Part shown: piece after piece, positions 15,697-60,901 of the stretch
How positions within the stretch are numbered: the first letter of the stretch is position 1
How the letters are laid out: every line of letters starts with the position of its first letter
Origin: a plasmid
DNA length: 63,119 bases
Assembly: GCF_056746865.1 (NCBI RefSeq)
Contig: NZ_JBWKMP010000006.1
Direction: 5' to 3' (one strand)
The notes under the pieces: generated by a model
Told to the model about the DNA's origin: nothing
What the model saw: only the letters and a program-made list of their open reading frames with translations
Databases searched by the model: none
Position numbers and translations under genes: made by a program

Positions 15697-15869
15697 GACA
15701 AAGTCTCCATTTCTGGAATTTAAATCAAACGGAAAGGTTAAAAATTTATTTGCAGGCGATAAGAGCTAACCAGAGGAATTAGCCGTGTGATAAAAGGATT
15801 GTTGCAGATACGAAAGTCGTTAGAATAGCTGCGGGCGCTTGAGGCTGTATGCCGAAAGCGTTTTGTGGA

Positions 15870-15935
15870 CGGTATACAGCAGAAAGCCCCAGGCGATTTT
15901 TTTATCAATCAACCAAGGGCTCTACTGTAATGCCT
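15870..15935 (-). ncRNA. pndB: candidate PndB (Sok-like) antisense RNA
   Basis: - strand promoter-like TTGCCT-N17-TACTATAAT (15977-15943) directed across the pndC translation-initiation region; boundaries are approximate. Confidence 0.3.
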
Positions 15936-16133
15936 AGACAACATTATAGTAGCCCGATAACCGCCGTAAGGCAATGGAGGGGCTATGATGCCACAGCGAA
16001 CGTTTTTAATGATGTTAATCGTCGTCTGTGTGACGATTCTGTGTTTTGTCTGGATGGTGAGGGATTCGCTTTGCGGACTCCGGCTCCAGCAGGGAAACAC
16101 AGTGCTTGTGGCAACGTTAGCCTACGAAGTTAA
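15930..16133 (+). CDS. pndC: PndC (Mok-like overlapping reading frame)
   Basis: ATG 15930 frame MPRQHYSSPITAVRQWRGYDATANVF... overlaps pndA in a different frame, as in hok/mok. Confidence 0.5.
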   Translation: MPRQHYSSPITAVRQWRGYDATANVFNDVNRRLCDDSVFCLDGEGFALRTPAPAGKHSACGNVSLRS

Positions 16134-16463: not shown

Positions 16464-16614
16464 CGGATTTTCTCTCTGTATTTATGGGTAGTTATCGAAC
16501 TGAATGTGCCAGTTTTTTCAGGAGACGGCAAAGTTGAGATGATTGGTTCTGATTCAGAGCATGAGTTTCCCGGTGTGACGGGCATGTCGGGCGGATTTTG
16601 AGAAACAACAGATG

Positions 16615-16646
16615 TAAAAAAACCGACTGGTGAGGTCGGTTTTTTT
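16615..16646. terminator. bidirectional rho-independent terminator
   Basis: A7-ACCGAC-TGGTGAG-GTCGGT-T6. Confidence 0.55.
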
Positions 16647-16770
16647 ACTGTTCCGTTACAGAGTGGGTGGCTCTGACCGGAGGTCTATAACTGACGCTAA
16701 AAATGATAATTTGTTCTAACTGATTAATGTTCATGCCATAAGTTTACGGGAAAGGCTGACCACCTGATAT

Positions 16771-39300: not shown

Positions 39301-39755
39301 TTTTTCCGGTTCTCCGGCTGCATGAAGCTGACCTGTAACAAGCCCGGATATTGATGGATTGTTGCTCTCCAGGCTGTCTGGGCTTCAATAAGTCTCAACG
39401 TATTGGAAAACGTCATATCCCGGACGTGAAGGTTGACTGGTAACGGCAGGCGGACACCATTGTAGTTAAACTGCATCCCCCTGACTCTGGCCAGTTCGTT
39501 CAGTAATTCAATTGCATCACCTTCCCAGTCAAAGGAAAGGCGATCGCTGTTAGCTGTCAGAAGATGAGACCCCGTTGAAACCGGAAGTTGGCCGGAAAAC
39601 ACACCTTTGTCCCATAATGTGTACTGAGTGTGCCGGGTAACCGCCACATCAGAGGCAGCACCGTAGTTACGCGGAACAGGAGTATGCTGAGAAGGGGAGT
39701 TGCAGCCAGCCAGAAAAAGGGCGGCAAGACACCCCGCAGGTATAATACGGTTCAT
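39297..39755 (-). CDS. traH: TraH (lipoprotein)
   Basis: 152-aa ORF with lipoprotein signal (FLAGCNS). Confidence 0.7.
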   Translation of the reverse strand: MNRIIPAGCLAALFLAGCNSPSQHTPVPRNYGAASDVAVTRHTQYTLWDKGVFSGQLPVSTGSHLLTANSDRLSFDWEGDAIELLNELARVRGMQFNYNGVRLPLPVNLHVRDMTFSNTLRLIEAQTAWRATIHQYPGLLQVSFMQPENRKK

Positions 39756-39962
39756 AATAATTCCTGAGCAGTTAAATCAGAATGGGATATACCGGTGCTC
39801 CGGTACAGACAGGATGATGTTTGTTTCCGGCTATACTTGCGTTACCGGAAATAAATGCCAGTGTGGCCAGGTAAATAGCCTCATAGTTTACTGAAGGTGA
39901 TTATTCCTGATACTGGCTGGTTGATGTGTCGTCAGACATAAAACGAATATGAGCGTAATCTT

Positions 39963-40110
39963 TAACGCTCCGCGCCGAATCGATCCATGATGGATGACTC
40001 GACGATTTATGAATCGAACGTACCGGCGCTTGTCCCTGAAACAGTTCCCGGCCCTCGTCCGGATAACCTGCAATTCAGACAGGCACATGTGCCCGTACAC
40101 TCTTGTATCT
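39963..40110 (-). repeat. conserved leader module E1 (family of three) upstream of traH
   Basis: ~150 nt with conserved ends shared with 59013-59165 and 60075-60230 (5-prime TAACGCTCCGCGCCGAATCGATCCATGATGGA, 3-prime CCTCGTCCGGATAACCTGCAATTCAGACAGGCACATG) and a divergent middle. Confidence 0.5.
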
Positions 40111-40149
40111 TACTGAGTATATCAGAATTTATGTAAATTCAAATATCCT

Positions 40150-40734
40150 CTATGCCTCTTTGTTGTATTTTCCGTCAAGTATGAGCCGGGTACCATCGTA
40201 ATGCATGATCAGGGCATCAAGGTACGCCGGTTTGAATTTCTTGCCGAGCCTATCTCTGGCCAGAAATGATAAACAATGATTATGTGTCATTATTACTATG
40301 TTCCTTTTATGAGATTCTCTTGCGATTGATTCAAGCGTCTTATAAAGATCATTATTGCAGTCTGATAAACTGTCCATAACGACGGGTTCTTTACCGGAGA
40401 AGAATTTTGCAGTTTGTATGGTTCTTACCGCATTGCTGGAGTAAATATCATATTCACTGAAGATTGTTGCGAACTTAATACCTTCCTGCTGTGCTTTCTC
40501 TGTACCGGTAATAGTGATTCCGCTTTTATCCGAATAGCATGGCATATCTGAACGGTCGCAACGTTCTCCATGGCGGAAAAGGAAAATAACGGTGTTATCA
40601 GCATTAATTTCTTTTGCCTGTTCCAGGGTGATATCGGGAAGCGAGCTTTTTGCTTTTGTCACTGCCGCTACCAGGAAAACAGAAAATAAAAGAATGAATG
40701 CTGTTTTTGAATAAGAAGAACGTGGTTTCATCAT
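40150..40734 (-). CDS. traG: TraG-position protein with a histidine-phosphatase (PGAM-like) signature
   Basis: 194-aa secreted protein with an RHGE motif (VIFLFRHGERCDRSD); symbol assigned by size and synteny only. Confidence 0.5.
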   Translation of the reverse strand: MMKPRSSYSKTAFILLFSVFLVAAVTKAKSSLPDITLEQAKEINADNTVIFLFRHGERCDRSDMPCYSDKSGITITGTEKAQQEGIKFATIFSEYDIYSSNAVRTIQTAKFFSGKEPVVMDSLSDCNNDLYKTLESIARESHKRNIVIMTHNHCLSFLARDRLGKKFKPAYLDALIMHYDGTRLILDGKYNKEA

Positions 40735-40793
40735 GTTATTTAAACTGAATATAAAAATACCCCCGGGTTTAGTGCCGGGGGCGGGGACAGTAA

Positions 40794-41996
40794 TCAGAAA
40801 GTGAACTGAAGTTGTGCCATTGCACCGTAATCGTGGTCAGTTCCTACCAGGCCGGAAACATCGATATGTACGACGTCAAATGGAGAGATACCAACGCCAG
40901 CGGTGAAGGCGCTTCCGGAGTTTGATGCCATGTTCTGACGATAACCGGCACGCAATTGCGCCCATTTCCATGCGTTAAATTCAGCACCAACACTTGCAAA
41001 CTGACGTTTGCTGTCAGAAGTGAAGCCACTGGCAGGAGTCAGATCAATGTCAAGAGCAGTGGTAAACAGGTCATTATGCCAGGATACACCGGCGGTTGCC
41101 TGCGGACGAACTTTGAAGGTTTCTTTAAAGCCATTGACGACTTTAGTATCAATACTGCGTGGAATGATGTTCTGGGCAACAAGACCGACAGTCCAGTTGT
41201 CATTCAGGTCTGTATAAGCACCAATATCGGCGTTGAATCCGTTTTTCGTGTTGTGGTACTTGTCACCGTCAAAATCGTCTTTGTCGTAATCACGAACCGT
41301 TACGTTGTAGTTAAACAGGTCCACACGCTGATATTTTGGTGTGACGCCAAGAGACCATTTTTGTCCGGCCGTTTCCAGTTCTTTGGCAAATGAAATTCCG
41401 ACGTCGGTAATTACAGCTGCACGCCCGAATGCGCGTGAGGTCAGGGCATTCTTATCGACGTCGGTAATTGTTCCATTGGCAACTTTGTCCAGATAATCCA
41501 GGTCTGCATCGTTTACTTTTCCGTTTACGCTGACAGTTCCGTAAGACTTGACCATAAGGGCAAACGGCAGAGTGTCATTTGCCATGGCTGCTACAGCTGA
41601 TACACCTACCTGAGCATCTGCATTGATATTGCGGAATTCCTGCAGACGATGTTTAAGATTTGCCGCTGCCTGTTGTACGCCATGCTGGTTATCTACAGCA
41701 CTGTCAAACAAATCCCAGTCATCTTTAACATCATCAGCTTTATTTGATACATCATCAGGATCAGCAACTTGTGCCCCAACAGACGGCAGAAGAAGGCTGA
41801 AATCATCATTGCTGTTGTGCTTTGTCAGTAAAGCCGGGTTTGCCAGAGGTGCCACACCATAATGGGAAGATGCTACCCCGGTACCACCCATTGCATCGTT
41901 ACGCGCTTCAAAATATGACGTCGCTGCTGCAGCGTTAAAGGAAAATAATACAGCAGATGCAATGATGGTGCGGGTAATATGATTTTTCTTCATCAT
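40794..41996 (-). CDS. traF: TraF-position outer-membrane beta-barrel protein
   Basis: 400-aa ORF with a signal peptide and a C-terminal aromatic beta-signal (...AQLQFTF); symbol by synteny. Confidence 0.55.
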   Translation of the reverse strand: MMKKNHITRTIIASAVLFSFNAAAATSYFEARNDAMGGTGVASSHYGVAPLANPALLTKHNSNDDFSLLLPSVGAQVADPDDVSNKADDVKDDWDLFDSAVDNQHGVQQAAANLKHRLQEFRNINADAQVGVSAVAAMANDTLPFALMVKSYGTVSVNGKVNDADLDYLDKVANGTITDVDKNALTSRAFGRAAVITDVGISFAKELETAGQKWSLGVTPKYQRVDLFNYNVTVRDYDKDDFDGDKYHNTKNGFNADIGAYTDLNDNWTVGLVAQNIIPRSIDTKVVNGFKETFKVRPQATAGVSWHNDLFTTALDIDLTPASGFTSDSKRQFASVGAEFNAWKWAQLRAGYRQNMASNSGSAFTAGVGISPFDVVHIDVSGLVGTDHDYGAMAQLQFTF

Positions 41997-42080: not shown

Positions 42081-42905
42081 TTACCAGGGTAATAAAGACG
42101 TATTAAATAAGCTAACAGGTAGTATTTGCCCTGTAATAAGGTTCCCGGCAAGGCCAGGTCTCAACGTGACGCGTCGCAAAGACATTGTTGTATTCTGCCT
42201 GGTTGTATATTCAGTTAACCATTTTCTTTTTTCATCGTTCAGAAGTGTTGGTGATAATGATAGTGCCGGATATATTACAGAGCCATTTATTTCTTTTTTC
42301 TGTCTCAATATTACCCCGCAATATTCTCTTTTCGTATTTCCTGCGAAGGGGAAACTATGCCAGAAAATAACTTCAGTGTTGCTGCTATCACTAATAAGCA
42401 TTCTGAAATTATCAGCAGTATCTGGCCATTCACCGGACAACGCTATCGGATAGTTTTCATGGCCATTCAGCCAGTCCGGATTGAGATTAAAACATTCAGC
42501 AAGATGTTCGAGAGCGTCAGCTGAAAGATAGTCTGCAAGTCTGGCCGGGTCCTGTATAACCGTGGAGCGGATATTCCATGGCGACAGCAATGTTGCCAGT
42601 AATGGCGCATTTATATCATGCGACAGCATGATGTATTCAATTCTGCTTATTATGTTTCCTGTGGTGTTATCCGCAGGCATAAACATATTATGAAGAGCAT
42701 CCTCAAGCAGGATTCGGGTTAAATCAGCGGTGGATATGGCTAATTGTTCGCTCATTATCCCCAGAACTTCTCTTACCCCTTGGGGGTAACGGACCTGCAG
42801 AGGTGTCGGGTTTATCTGACGACCGTTGATGAGTTTTTCGCCGATTGCTTTTTTGTCCAGCGAGAGCATCATTCGGGCCGCAATACCGGTCGTATTCAGT
42901 CTCAT
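42081..42905 (-). CDS. traE: TraE-position protein
   Basis: 274-aa ORF between rci and traF; symbol by synteny. Confidence 0.45.
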   Translation of the reverse strand: MRLNTTGIAARMMLSLDKKAIGEKLINGRQINPTPLQVRYPQGVREVLGIMSEQLAISTADLTRILLEDALHNMFMPADNTTGNIISRIEYIMLSHDINAPLLATLLSPWNIRSTVIQDPARLADYLSADALEHLAECFNLNPDWLNGHENYPIALSGEWPDTADNFRMLISDSSNTEVIFWHSFPFAGNTKREYCGVILRQKKEINGSVIYPALSLSPTLLNDEKRKWLTEYTTRQNTTMSLRRVTLRPGLAGNLITGQILPVSLFNTSLLPW

Positions 42906-43055
42906 TGTTCCTCCGACTGAAAAAGTCTTTTCAGCTCATGTGGTTATTGTATCTTCGGTGTTTTTTCTGGTGAAACGAATAATTTCGATCATGCAGATCG
43001 AATGTGTTTGGCGAGTTGTTGCAACTCGCCTTTCTGTATGTGTTTTGAATGATGT

Positions 43056-44261: not shown

Positions 44262-44274
44262 GTGCCAATCCGGT
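44262..44274 (+). repeat. shufflon repeat r1 (core)
   Basis: GTGCCAATCCGGT. Confidence 0.8.
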
Positions 44275-44741
44275 CGGTGGTCTGGAGGCAATAAAGTGAA
44301 CTACTCCGCCTGTAAGTGGTATCAATCATCTGTAGCAATGAATCACTTCATTGGCGGGAAAAGTGGAGGATCTATCTACTACAAACCCATTCAATGCCCG
44401 ACCGGATTTATCATGACAGGTACACGCATGTATGGCATTGGTGATGGCGTTGATGAGGAACACGTTGATGCTTATTGTTGCCCCTTCGGTTAAATCCCAG
44501 CACCAGGAAGATTCAGGCATGTAACAGTAATTGTGCCGCCGGACTCATAATTTCCCCACGCATAATTATTCACATACCAAACCTTGTTTTGGTCGGAGTA
44601 TACCTGCTGAAACCCACCAAAAGGTGCACCATTAAGGTATGTCCACGAACAGTACGCATGTACGCCAATGCTCAGATTTCGGGTGTTTTTCCCGATATTG
44701 TACGTACTGGTAGTGAAGTTCACTTTTGCCGTTGTCCAGAT

Positions 44742-44754
44742 ACCGGATTGGCAC
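44742..44754 (-). repeat. shufflon repeat r2 (core)
   Basis: ACCGGATTGGCAC on + strand. Confidence 0.8.
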
Positions 44755-45132
44755 GGAGGCCAGCAGCGCCAGCAATTTAATCTCAGTTCTGACACGCGAC
44801 GACATAACTACATTTTCCGGTTAAATCAGCTCTAAATGTCCCTTTATGGAAATTGTATTCGTCATAGAAGCCGCATTTCACAATTCGATTGGCATCATAG
44901 GTTGCAACTGACCCCGCAAAATAATTCGGCTTCCACCCGTGCGGATTTTCTGCATTACTGACACTCCATGAGTCAGGCATGTCAATAGGAACGACTTCTG
45001 TTTCTGCCATTTCACGCCCGTCAATACGATAGGTGTTAATACACAGTTTAAACCTCCCTAAGACCTGTGTGTTTTTGGGATATAACGTAAATGTTTTTAT
45101 ATTGTGTCCATATCGACGCTGATTACGCCAGG

Positions 45133-45145
45133 TACCGGATTGGCA
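45133..45145 (-). repeat. shufflon repeat r3 (core)
   Basis: ACCGGATTGGCAC on + strand. Confidence 0.8.
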
Positions 45146-45153
45146 CGTAGGCC

Positions 45154-45166
45154 AGTGCCAATCCGG
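45154..45166 (+). repeat. shufflon repeat r4 (core)
   Basis: GTGCCAATCCGGT, 8 bp from r3 in opposite orientation. Confidence 0.8.
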
Positions 45167-45621
45167 TACGTGGGGGACAAGACTTGGCAAGCCGTTACTC
45201 ACAGTATTCGTCCTACTTTCTGACAGATTACTTGCTTGAAATAGCTTATTGCCAGAATGGTTCACATAGAGGATGCATTCACTACTGCCGGTAGTTGAGA
45301 GCCCAGCAGGGGGCAGTACATTGTTTATTTATGCATCTGGTAAGGTCAATTAAGGATCTGCCGGAGGTGCAAATACCGCCGCCAATACATCCCGTTTTGC
45401 AGTTGGATATGTTGCTCCAGGAAAGCGCCAAGTAGCCTGCAATGTACAGCAAAGCTGATAAAGGCTGTTTTTCCTGCATATGGAAAAACAGCCTTTATCA
45501 GCTTTCCACCACTGTACCTGGGGCAGGTACTTCCTATCAGATGGGCAAACATCCTATCCAACAGAAAATACATCATGTGGTGCCGGGGTTGTTTGCGTCG
45601 TATTTGGATATCAAATTAAGT

Positions 45622-46926
45622 TTAATTGAGAGTTACACAGGACGCAATACAACCTGTCTTGTGCTCGTATTTGTACCATTTTCGTGAACCAGATGGACTC
45701 TCGACTACCTGGCAGTAATGAGAATCCTCAGCATTTCCCATTCTGGCAATGGCACAAAAGTCAAATTGCCCCAAGTAACCAGTGCTGGAAAGTTGAGTAA
45801 CCTTGAGCTTTCCACCTAATGCCCTCCACACACCGGATTGGCACGAAAGTATCGCCCCTGTACTGTCGCGGCCTACAAGCCCGTTAGGGGAGCAGGAAGT
45901 GCCAGCAACGGCAGTTCTTTCCAGTTGTAAGTATTCACCAGTATAAAGGCGACCATCAGCACGAACAGTACCGCCTTTCACCTGACCGCCGGTATAGATG
46001 CCCTTGTTGTTTACACTTCGAACCCATGATCCATCGGACATATAAAATCCGCCACCGTGAGTTTCATTGAGCCAGCCTTTACTGTTACGAGTAATTAACC
46101 AACCATTATTACTTCTGATATCACCGCCAGCGGTGACATTTACGTCAAAGTTTCCGCTATTGCCTTTTACCTGACCGCTGAAAGTGCCATTTACACCATT
46201 CACATTGCCGCTGAAATTACCAGTCTGGGCATTTACTGCCCCAACGTTATTCAGGTTATTTGATCCCATATCAATGGCCGTGTGCATTTTGTTTAAGTCA
46301 GGGCGACCATTGACCTGGAATCTGTAAAGACGATCAGTGTCCTCAGCTGCACCACTAAGTTCATCTGTCGATAACAATACGGCAATATGCCCGTTACCGC
46401 TTTTGGCACCATAATTACTTAAAGCTACTGACCAGGAACGTAATGCACCTGTGGCTGTTTTGCCGTCCTGGATATATCCACCAAGACCAGTGGTAATATC
46501 CTTAGCCATCTGGATAAGTGCTTTCACTGGATAAGGTGTGCCACCACTGGATACAACCATTGCCTGTAGTAATTCCGGGTTTTGGGCGTTTCGAACCACA
46601 TATGCCTGTAACCGCTGCCCCTCGCTGTTTGTCTCAGTAAACCCGCTGGACAAAAAGCCGGTATTTTTCAGCATGGTTGTCGTGATAACGGCAGGAGTTG
46701 TTGTGGTACTACTGCCCTGGAGAGTTGTGTAGTTTTTCCCTATATAAGAGCGGGCCGCACTGGTCCAGTTGCTGACAAGACGTGCTTCAGTTTGCCATCC
46801 TTTTGTTTGAATATAGTCCTGCCATATGCCTGCTCCCCAGGCAACTATGATCATAACAATCAGTAAAGCCGCGCCAGTTTCCAGCGATGCCCAGCCTCGG
46901 TCATATTTTTTCATCAGATTACCCAT
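45622..46926 (-). CDS. pilV: PilV thin-pilus tip adhesin (constant region plus the currently joined shufflon C-terminus)
   Basis: 434-aa ORF with prepilin-like N-terminus; crosses repeat r5 into the shufflon. Confidence 0.85.
45832..45844 (-). repeat. shufflon repeat r5 (core), junction with the pilV constant region
   Basis: ACCGGATTGGCAC on + strand, inside the pilV ORF at ...[14 protein letters not shown]. Confidence 0.8.
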
Positions 46927-59735: not shown

Positions 59736-60074
59736 AGCAAAGGTCTCCGATGACAACTAAAAACGCTATCACTGAGTTCCTACGCTCATTGGTGATAGCC
59801 CAGACGGGGGTAGGAATACCGGCGTCATCGGAAACCGGCCAGGCTAATGCCTGCCCCGCCTGAGCTACCATAGATGACGACAAGAAATACAAGTTCCTGT
59901 CTTTATGGTATGGCAAAAAACGACGCCAAATGAAGAAATTAACTTCTGCGCCGACGATGACTACGCGGGTTCCTACGCCCGATCACAGTTTTGCCTGTGA
60001 CCAGTAAAGGGTACTTAGTATAACGCACCGAGTCAACTAACAGCTTAAAAAACATACAAAAAAGCGTCAAAACT

Positions 60075-60721: not shown

Positions 60722-60797
60722 CCATAAAAGGAAAACCCCCACTATCTTTCTTACGAACTTGGCGGAACGACGAAAGATAGTGGGGGCCTCACAGAAT
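60722..60797 (-). ncRNA. inc: Inc antisense RNA (copy-number control of repZ)
   Basis: Perfect 15-bp stem (60736-60750 / 60772-60786) with loop containing TTGGCG (60759-60764); - strand promoter TTGAAT-N17-TATACT (60832-60806) and T-rich tail after the stem. Confidence 0.55.
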
Positions 60798-60811
60798 ACG
60801 GGTAAAGTATA

Positions 60812-60901
60812 ATGAAACCGTACCAGAGATTCAACCCTGTGCAGTGTATAAATACACGGCACAATCGCTCCGCCATAAGCGACAGCTTGTGGCAGGTCTG
60901 A
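60812..60901 (+). CDS. repY: RepY leader peptide
   Basis: 29-codon ORF MKPYQRFNPVQCINTRHNRSAISDSLWQV ending at TGA 60899-60901, overlapping the repZ start. Confidence 0.65.
   Translation: MKPYQRFNPVQCINTRHNRSAISDSLWQV

Follow-up and report, generated by a model that had tools for sequence, protein, structure and literature searches.

Genetic context of traG

The window, that is, the whole 63,119-nucleotide stretch of plasmid DNA analysed here, carries on its minus strand a 194-aa open reading frame at 40150–40734, which the ORF listing starts at an ATG (sequence ATGATG). Its DNA is 100% identical to positions 99096–99680 of R64 (NC_005014.1), and sequence identity makes it traG of IncI1 plasmids such as R64. 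The original prediction, made from the letters alone, had seen a 194-aa ORF at the traG position, and the ORF is indeed found there, in the IncI1 transfer region and flanked by traF and traH. The delineation of this coding sequence draws on the ORF itself, the R64 DNA identity, Pfam and NCBIfam matches, a structure model and fold searches. Against R64 the window is 97.7–99.1% identical in blocks and differs in shufflon arrangement, and on these comparisons it is a close R64 relative, not R64 itself. An IncI1 repZ pseudoknot is also present, as matched by Rfam.

The minus-strand gene order is traE, traF, traG, a 394-bp spacer, traH, traI, traJ, traK, nuc and the sog primase gene. The first gene of the traE-traF-traG group, traE (42081–42905, minus strand; 274 aa), has no family match in Pfam or NCBIfam, and traF (40794–41996, minus strand), the upstream neighbour of traG, encodes an outer-membrane beta-barrel-type protein (Pfam TraF_2, E 4.5e-73). 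On the other side, the spacer between traG and traH (39756–40149, minus strand) holds no annotated gene and no Rfam family at gathering score; traH belongs to the DotD family, traI matches T4SS_TraI and traJ matches the plasmid transfer ATPase family TIGR02525. With a GC content of 40.3%, traG is the lowest of the region (traH-J, 51–53%).

Public records already name the traG product a histidine phosphatase or LPS core phosphatase; GenBank LC567085, for instance, labels the same gene ‘traG: histidine phosphatase domain protein’. The family assignment is thus already public in RefSeq, in GenBank and in a table of a 2014 paper, the pESBL Tn-seq study (PMC4288162) lists the gene under such an annotation, and the dispensability of the gene for laboratory transfer is likewise known. 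Our literature search on the function of the traG protein found no study, and searches for papers linking IncI or IncI1 traG with histidine phosphatase found none.

Other features of the window were recorded alongside. Four Rfam matches above the gathering score (15833–15990, 16614–16694, 59788–59875 and 60728–60876) comprise a sok antitoxin RNA, an AgrB antisense RNA, a C4 antisense RNA and the IncI1 repZ regulatory pseudoknot; the sok RNA adjoins a Hok/Gef gene, and the AgrB RNA lies near a DinQ-like toxin gene. By BLAST, the shufflon segments at 44270–45850 form inverted and rearranged blocks relative to the R64 reference, as expected for an active Rci shufflon.

Upstream signals and expression

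A sigma-70-like promoter consensus upstream of traE (42946–42974, minus strand; 9/12 matches in a consensus scan) is a candidate promoter for traE-traF(-traG). It sits just downstream of two adjacent hairpins at 42984–43030, between rci and traE, one of which is palindromic and terminator-like on both strands. Closer to traG, the consensus scan and the sequence itself reveal a strong G+C-rich terminator-like hairpin followed by a T-run (40759–40782, minus strand; GCCCCCGG...CCGGGGGT) in the gap that separates the traF stop from the traG ATG, which begins 25 nt further on. A hairpin also occurs in the two divergent alleles described below, at ~73% (where it is without the T-run) and 87% identity. 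The same scan and inspection found no Shine-Dalgarno sequence before the traG ATG. Given the hairpin and the missing Shine-Dalgarno sequence, traG expression may be low.

On the IncI1 plasmid pTF2, a traF::lacZ fusion is expressed and inducible (PMC6768964). The same paper prompted a search near traE-G for the RfaH ops element (GGCGGTAGNNTG), which returned two one-mismatch matches, at chance level and none of them upstream of traE. No Rfam family matched at gathering thresholds between 39.7 and 40.9 kb. Transcript or protein evidence for traG was not found, and in the main texts of the papers on pTF2 (proteomics and follow-up) the gene goes unmentioned.

Fold, active site and predicted export

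The FLFRHGER motif, residues 51–58 of TraG, had been read in the original prediction as an RHGE motif typical of the phosphoglycerate-mutase/histidine-phosphatase superfamily, and Pfam, NCBIfam, PDB-profile and AlphaFold2 results all support that reading. Pfam His_Phos_1 (PF00300) matches at 35.1 bits (gathering score 21.7; E 1.4e-8), and this match spans residues 50–123, the N-terminal half of the protein only. A single-sequence phmmer search of TraG against PDB sequences gave no match and a profile search was needed; the profile of 72 homologues matched fructose-2,6-bisphosphatases, PGAM5, Sts, PhoE and SixA-like chains. Built on the 72-sequence alignment, the AlphaFold2 model has a mean pLDDT of 94.7 and the alpha/beta fold of the superfamily, and its fold matches include RosC, phosphoserine phosphatase, SixA and PhoE. 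PDB searches found no solved structure among members of the Ais/PmrG subfamily, to which TraG is assigned below.

Structure prediction and active-site comparison had been proposed as the check, and besides the confident model they place the catalytic residues where SixA has them. In the R-H-G-E-R stretch (codons 54–58; 40561–40575, minus strand), the predicted catalytic Arg54 and nucleophile His55, invariant with Arg58 in the Ais family alignment, correspond by hhalign to R7 and H8 of E. coli SixA. The R-T-I-Q-T-A stretch (codons 104–109; 40408–40425, minus strand) supplies the second putative phosphate-binding arginine, R104, which aligns with the KRTIQTA of fructose-2,6-bisphosphatase and with R55 of SixA, and T-H-N-H (codons 150–153; 40276–40287, minus strand) the second putative catalytic histidine, H151, which aligns with H108. 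Across the 72 homologues H55, R104, C59, C66 and C126 never vary, and at least 90% keep R54, E57, R58, T150, H151 and C154; in a ten-member family alignment all four cysteines (C59, C66, C126 and C154) are invariant. As regards the acid/base (proton donor) residue, all ten aligned members have an acidic residue at position 121 or 122, near the column that the profile alignment pairs with the region around the catalytic Glu in fructose-2,6-bisphosphatase. The alternative that the motif is fortuitous, with no conserved catalytic residues behind it, is ruled out by the SixA alignment together with the 72-homologue conservation.

The N-terminus also bears out the signal peptide of the original prediction, as far as a heuristic reading of hydropathy and sequence can. 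The predicted Sec signal peptide (codons 1–28; 40651–40734, minus strand) has a positively charged n-region (K3, R5 and K10), a 15-residue hydrophobic core (residues 11–25, Kyte-Doolittle up to 3.06) and a candidate cleavage site T-K-A|K, probably after A28, with small residues at -3 and -1; the AlphaFold2 model shows a helix at residues 10–27. A lipobox cysteine was looked for in the N-terminal sequence and none was seen. A comparable hydrophobic N-terminus is present in all Ais-family members aligned. From this segment we infer that TraG is located in the periplasm. Fold, active site and signal-like N-terminus together support TraG as an exported enzyme of the histidine-phosphatase superfamily, branch 1 (PF00300).

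Membership of the Ais/PmrG subfamily

The reading as a histidine phosphatase can be sharpened. NCBIfam PRK15416 (NF011945, ‘LPS core heptose(II)-phosphate phosphatase’) matches residues 1–192 of the 194 with 295.1 bits against a cut-off of 142 (E 2e-88); among the proteins scored TraG ranks second to E. coli K-12 Ais (391.9), and other paralogues score 168–257. TraG and K-12 Ais are 43% identical over 164 aa (E 2e-51). For the PmrG equivalog NF052369 TraG stays below the cut-off (123.7 against 170 bits), a failure that is weakly informative because K-12 Ais falls below it too (145.8). In a neighbour-joining tree built without bootstrap, TraG alleles are sister to an E. coli/Citrobacter Ais clade, and both clades sit, in the same tree without support values, within a radiation of paralogues from enterobacterial plasmids and islands. 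K-12 ais adjoins arnB; traG instead lies between plasmid traF and traH. By its sequence relationships TraG is a member of the Ais/PmrG subfamily of LPS-core heptose(II)-phosphate phosphatases, and a paralogue, not an orthologue, of PmrG. That it is an active exported histidine phosphatase of this family appears very probable.

According to PMC8129183, which cites Nishino 2006, Salmonella PmrG removes the phosphate from heptose II of the LPS core; enzymology for TraG or E. coli Ais was not found in the literature searched. Carried over from PmrG at ~43–45% identity, the substrate of TraG would be heptose II phosphate, a proposal that is slightly more likely right than wrong. It is rather unlikely that TraG is an active periplasmic histidine phosphatase with another substrate, for which the candidates are heptose I phosphate or pyrophosphoethanolamine, lipid A 1-diphosphate, undecaprenyl phosphates, a phosphorylated pilin or envelope protein, or a small phospho-metabolite. 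Such a divergence would fit an identity to Ais of just 43–45% and a score under the PmrG equivalog cut-off, and the histidine-phosphatase fold takes very different substrates (RosC, phosphoserine phosphatase, SixA and PhoE); the many divergent paralogues on E. coli plasmids and islands may likewise have diversified in specificity. However, the full-length PRK15416 match is well over its cut-off and above that of every other paralogue tested, the family-specific motifs (ERCDRS...C...GIT and THNHC) are kept along with all four cysteines, and no positive pointer to a different substrate emerged.

The more distant paralogues adjoin a SPATE autotransporter or AraC-type regulators. E. coli has several further plasmid-borne paralogues of the Ais family. 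One of them (L004–L007, 8001–8582; 44% identity to TraG) is flanked by an EAL-domain gene and hydrolases, with a SPATE autotransporter downstream, and another (L008, 732–1307; 60%) stands beside AraC and GrlA/CaiF-type regulators.

Role in conjugation

An enzyme fold of this type had been noted in the original prediction as no obvious part of a type IV secretion machine, and TraG indeed corresponds to no recognised T4SS component. In the Tn-seq screen of the IncI1 plasmid pESBL, TraG scored 0.00 for required for transfer, 0.79 for non-essential and 0.21 for essential for maintenance, and the non-essential scores of TraF and TraE were 1.00 and 0.93 (PMC4288162). The original prediction had named dispensability of the gene as an outcome that would count against it; traG is dispensable for transfer in this screen, which leaves the enzyme assignment unrefuted. 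Matings in the screen were on solid medium with a single K-12 recipient (PMC4288162), so that its result leaves room for a conditional role of traG in transfer.

The gene name and the position between traF and traH, in an annotated transfer region, would suit a role for TraG in the structure or assembly of the IncI type IVB secretion system or thin pilus. We hold this to be exceedingly improbable, in view of a required-for-transfer probability of 0.00, of a complete enzyme active site, and of the general conjugation cluster of R64, which PMC4288162 defines as traH-trbC, leaving out traEFG. Components of the IncI (MPF_I) type IVB machinery would occur only with other machine genes, and the traG family does not: the 87% allele and more distant paralogues are found without any T4SS genes. 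The type IVB secretion machine thus neither includes TraG as a structural element nor requires it, and traG is an accessory gene in the dispensable traE-traF-traG group. Nevertheless, ~1,370 IncI-type plasmids conserve its placement, in the same orientation as the tra genes; this hints at a connection with mating, for which a reading as pure ‘cargo’ does not account.

Distribution, allelic turnover and selection

The gene occurs in ~1,370 PLSDB plasmids and in 780 of 5426 complete E. coli RefSeq genomes, about one in seven. Amino-acid identity is at least 99% in 1240 of the 1441 matching PLSDB records, and by far most of the ~1,400 plasmids have an uninterrupted reading frame; frameshifted and truncated copies also exist.

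A related IncI contig, L010, departs from this uniformity at traG. Its traE, traF, traI and traJ products are 98.5–100% identical to those of the window (dS 0.005–0.025), whereas its traG is ~72–73% identical, with a dS of 1.05 and a dN/dS of 0.153. Sliding identity between the two places the divergent block from just past the traF stop (~40800) to the traH start (~39740), with near-identical flanks; within it (window 39740–40800; L010 7940–9050) identity is ~75%, and the backbone is otherwise 99–100% identical. The traG-traH spacer diverges together with traG as one block, and in the 5' part of traH dS is only 0.18. On these alignments, traG together with the spacer that follows it acts as a cassette that can be exchanged, and its alleles are much older than the backbone around them.

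A second contig, L013, carries dispersin, Aat-type ABC transporter and T2SS genes of virulence-plasmid type, and its homology to the window is confined to traG and the 125 nt at the 3' end of traF (L013 7817–8587). The traF remnant contains stop codons and indels; the adjoining traG, an 87% allele with a dN/dS of 0.171, is intact. This survival, the settings of the more distant paralogues and the low GC content of traG speak for its autonomy from the tra genes. The cassette-like turnover of traG, and this intact 87% allele beside a decayed traF on a virulence-type plasmid, are what is new here.

Two apparent signs of inactivation were followed up. The 90%-cluster representative P0001 carries an R54H change, and 81-nt exact-match probes found the H variant in 1 of 1370 plasmids, so that widespread inactivation by this route was rejected. 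The allele P0002, whose cluster size made it look common, has a 6-aa deletion that loses Cys66; tblastn with P0002 gave no full-length match better than that to the undeleted gene (96.9%), and the deletion allele is therefore, as far as these matches indicate, rare among complete plasmids.

These observations bear on the idea that traG has fallen silent or is decaying, in which case a once captured ais-like gene, poorly expressed behind a terminator, would serve no function at present and would be carried along by a successful and very clonal plasmid backbone. The terminator-like hairpin just upstream, the missing Shine-Dalgarno sequence, the dispensability for transfer, a GC content low relative to the core tra genes and the existence of frameshifted or truncated copies would all agree with decay. 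It nonetheless looks very improbable, since dN/dS is 0.15–0.17 across alleles with dS up to 1.05, the catalytic residues and cysteines are invariant among alleles, the frame is intact in the great majority of ~1,400 plasmids, and traG is intact where the adjacent traF has decayed. As measured by these substitution rates, traG is shown to be under purifying selection.

Proposed function

By analogy with its relatives, TraG is probably a small Sec-exported periplasmic histidine phosphatase of Ais/PmrG type that most likely acts on the inner core of host LPS. The protein would be exported via Sec to the periplasm, where two disulfides probably form from the four invariant cysteines. His55 would then attack a phosphomonoester held by Arg54, Arg58, Arg104 and His151; by homology this would be the phosphate that the LPS inner core bears on heptose II, and TraG would act on it from the periplasmic side while the LPS is still on its way to the outer membrane. 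The outcome would be a less negative inner core on every plasmid-bearing cell, independent of the PmrAB signal that controls the chromosomal gene, and traG would serve as an accessory envelope-remodelling gene at the edge of the transfer region.

The gene may benefit the plasmid or its host. Its intactness beside a decayed traF, together with the paralogues on virulence plasmids, favours a benefit to the host envelope that is independent of transfer. Among the major vehicles of ESBL and AmpC genes in E. coli and Salmonella are the IncI1 plasmids. If TraG strips LPS-core phosphate without the PmrAB signal, every IncI1 host would have a slightly altered outer membrane, and this could affect tolerance to metals and cationic peptides, phage receptors and the recognition of mating partners.

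A possible link to mating-partner recognition and PilV

The last of these effects has been considered separately. Defined structures of the LPS core are the ligands of the PilV adhesins that R64 and the IncI2 plasmid TP114 encode, and TP114 PilVA' binds Hep-alpha(1-3)-Hep-4-phosphate of the inner core (PMC10654706). Because PilV adhesins read the LPS core, a core phosphatase encoded by the donor could alter self-recognition: altered inner-core phosphate would change the binding of the IncI thin-pilus PilV to plasmid-bearing cells, giving fewer donor-donor aggregates or unproductive matings, a surface-exclusion-like complement to ExcA, or adjusted mating in liquid. Location and history offer this idea some encouragement, as pilV, the shufflon and rci lie within ~5 kb of traG and in the same orientation, nearly all IncI1-type plasmids conserve the gene, and its alleles are far older than the backbone (dS 1.05 against 0.005–0.18), as in recognition and exclusion determinants.

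We nevertheless regard such tuning as unlikely. TP114 PilVA' still recognises delta-waaY recipients, which are without heptose II phosphate, and it is the WaaP heptose I phosphate that matters (PMC10654706); because these recipients are still recognised, removal of heptose II phosphate alone should not mask the PilVA' receptor. Moreover, pESBL Tn-seq gave no transfer phenotype (PMC4288162), and traG survives outside any conjugation context. Co-variation of traG and PilV alleles found no support either: in L010, the plasmid with the ~73% traG allele, PilV is 97% identical to that of the window despite the divergent traG, a comparison whose sample is one lineage. The available data do not favour the mating-recognition idea.

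A broader form of it would make traG a plasmid-encoded editor of the cell's own LPS inner core whose purpose is tied to IncI mating and changes the surface read by PilV or by LPS-core-specific phages. This would amount to a previously unrecognised, enzyme-based surface exclusion or partner discrimination, with the ancient cassette-like alleles reflecting diversifying selection on that recognition; this proposal as a whole strikes us as improbable.

The pilV neighbourhood of L010 differs from that of the window in further respects. Its pilV (430 aa; window pilV, 45625–46914) is followed 560 bp further on by traE, rci and the whole shufflon having been lost in that IncI lineage (L010 3979–5831), and only the last 243 bp of the 560-bp gap match the window.

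Comparison with known systems

TraG closely resembles Ais (E. coli b2252) and PmrG (Salmonella). It has 194 aa against 200 and a hydrophobic N-terminal export segment like theirs, and it shares with them the motifs RH(G/A)ERCDRS, GIT, SSNxVRTIQ(T/S)A and THNHC as well as the four cysteines; like K-12 Ais, it passes NCBIfam PRK15416. Unlike Ais/PmrG, TraG is plasmid-borne in the IncI transfer region and does not lie beside the arn (pmrHFIJKLM) operon, and its alleles make up a clade of their own. The chromosomal Ais/PmrG gene is PmrA-regulated; because traG is plasmid-borne and not next to the arn operon, it is presumably outside PmrA/BasR control.

Small histidine phosphatases of the SixA/PhoE type, in branch 1 of the superfamily, are more remote. 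They work in the cytoplasm, on phosphohistidine proteins or small metabolites, whereas TraG has a predicted signal peptide and conserved cysteines and is only 13–21% identical to them. Nearer to it are the Ais paralogues of E. coli and Salmonella plasmids and islands (P0033, P0020, P0040, P0041 and P0048), which are borne on mobile elements as TraG is, contain the same motifs, all pass PRK15416 with 168–212 bits and are 37–60% identical to TraG; they differ in residing in virulence-plasmid contexts with no transfer region. TraG is, in sum, a plasmid paralogue of a known LPS-modifying enzyme and not a new kind of system.
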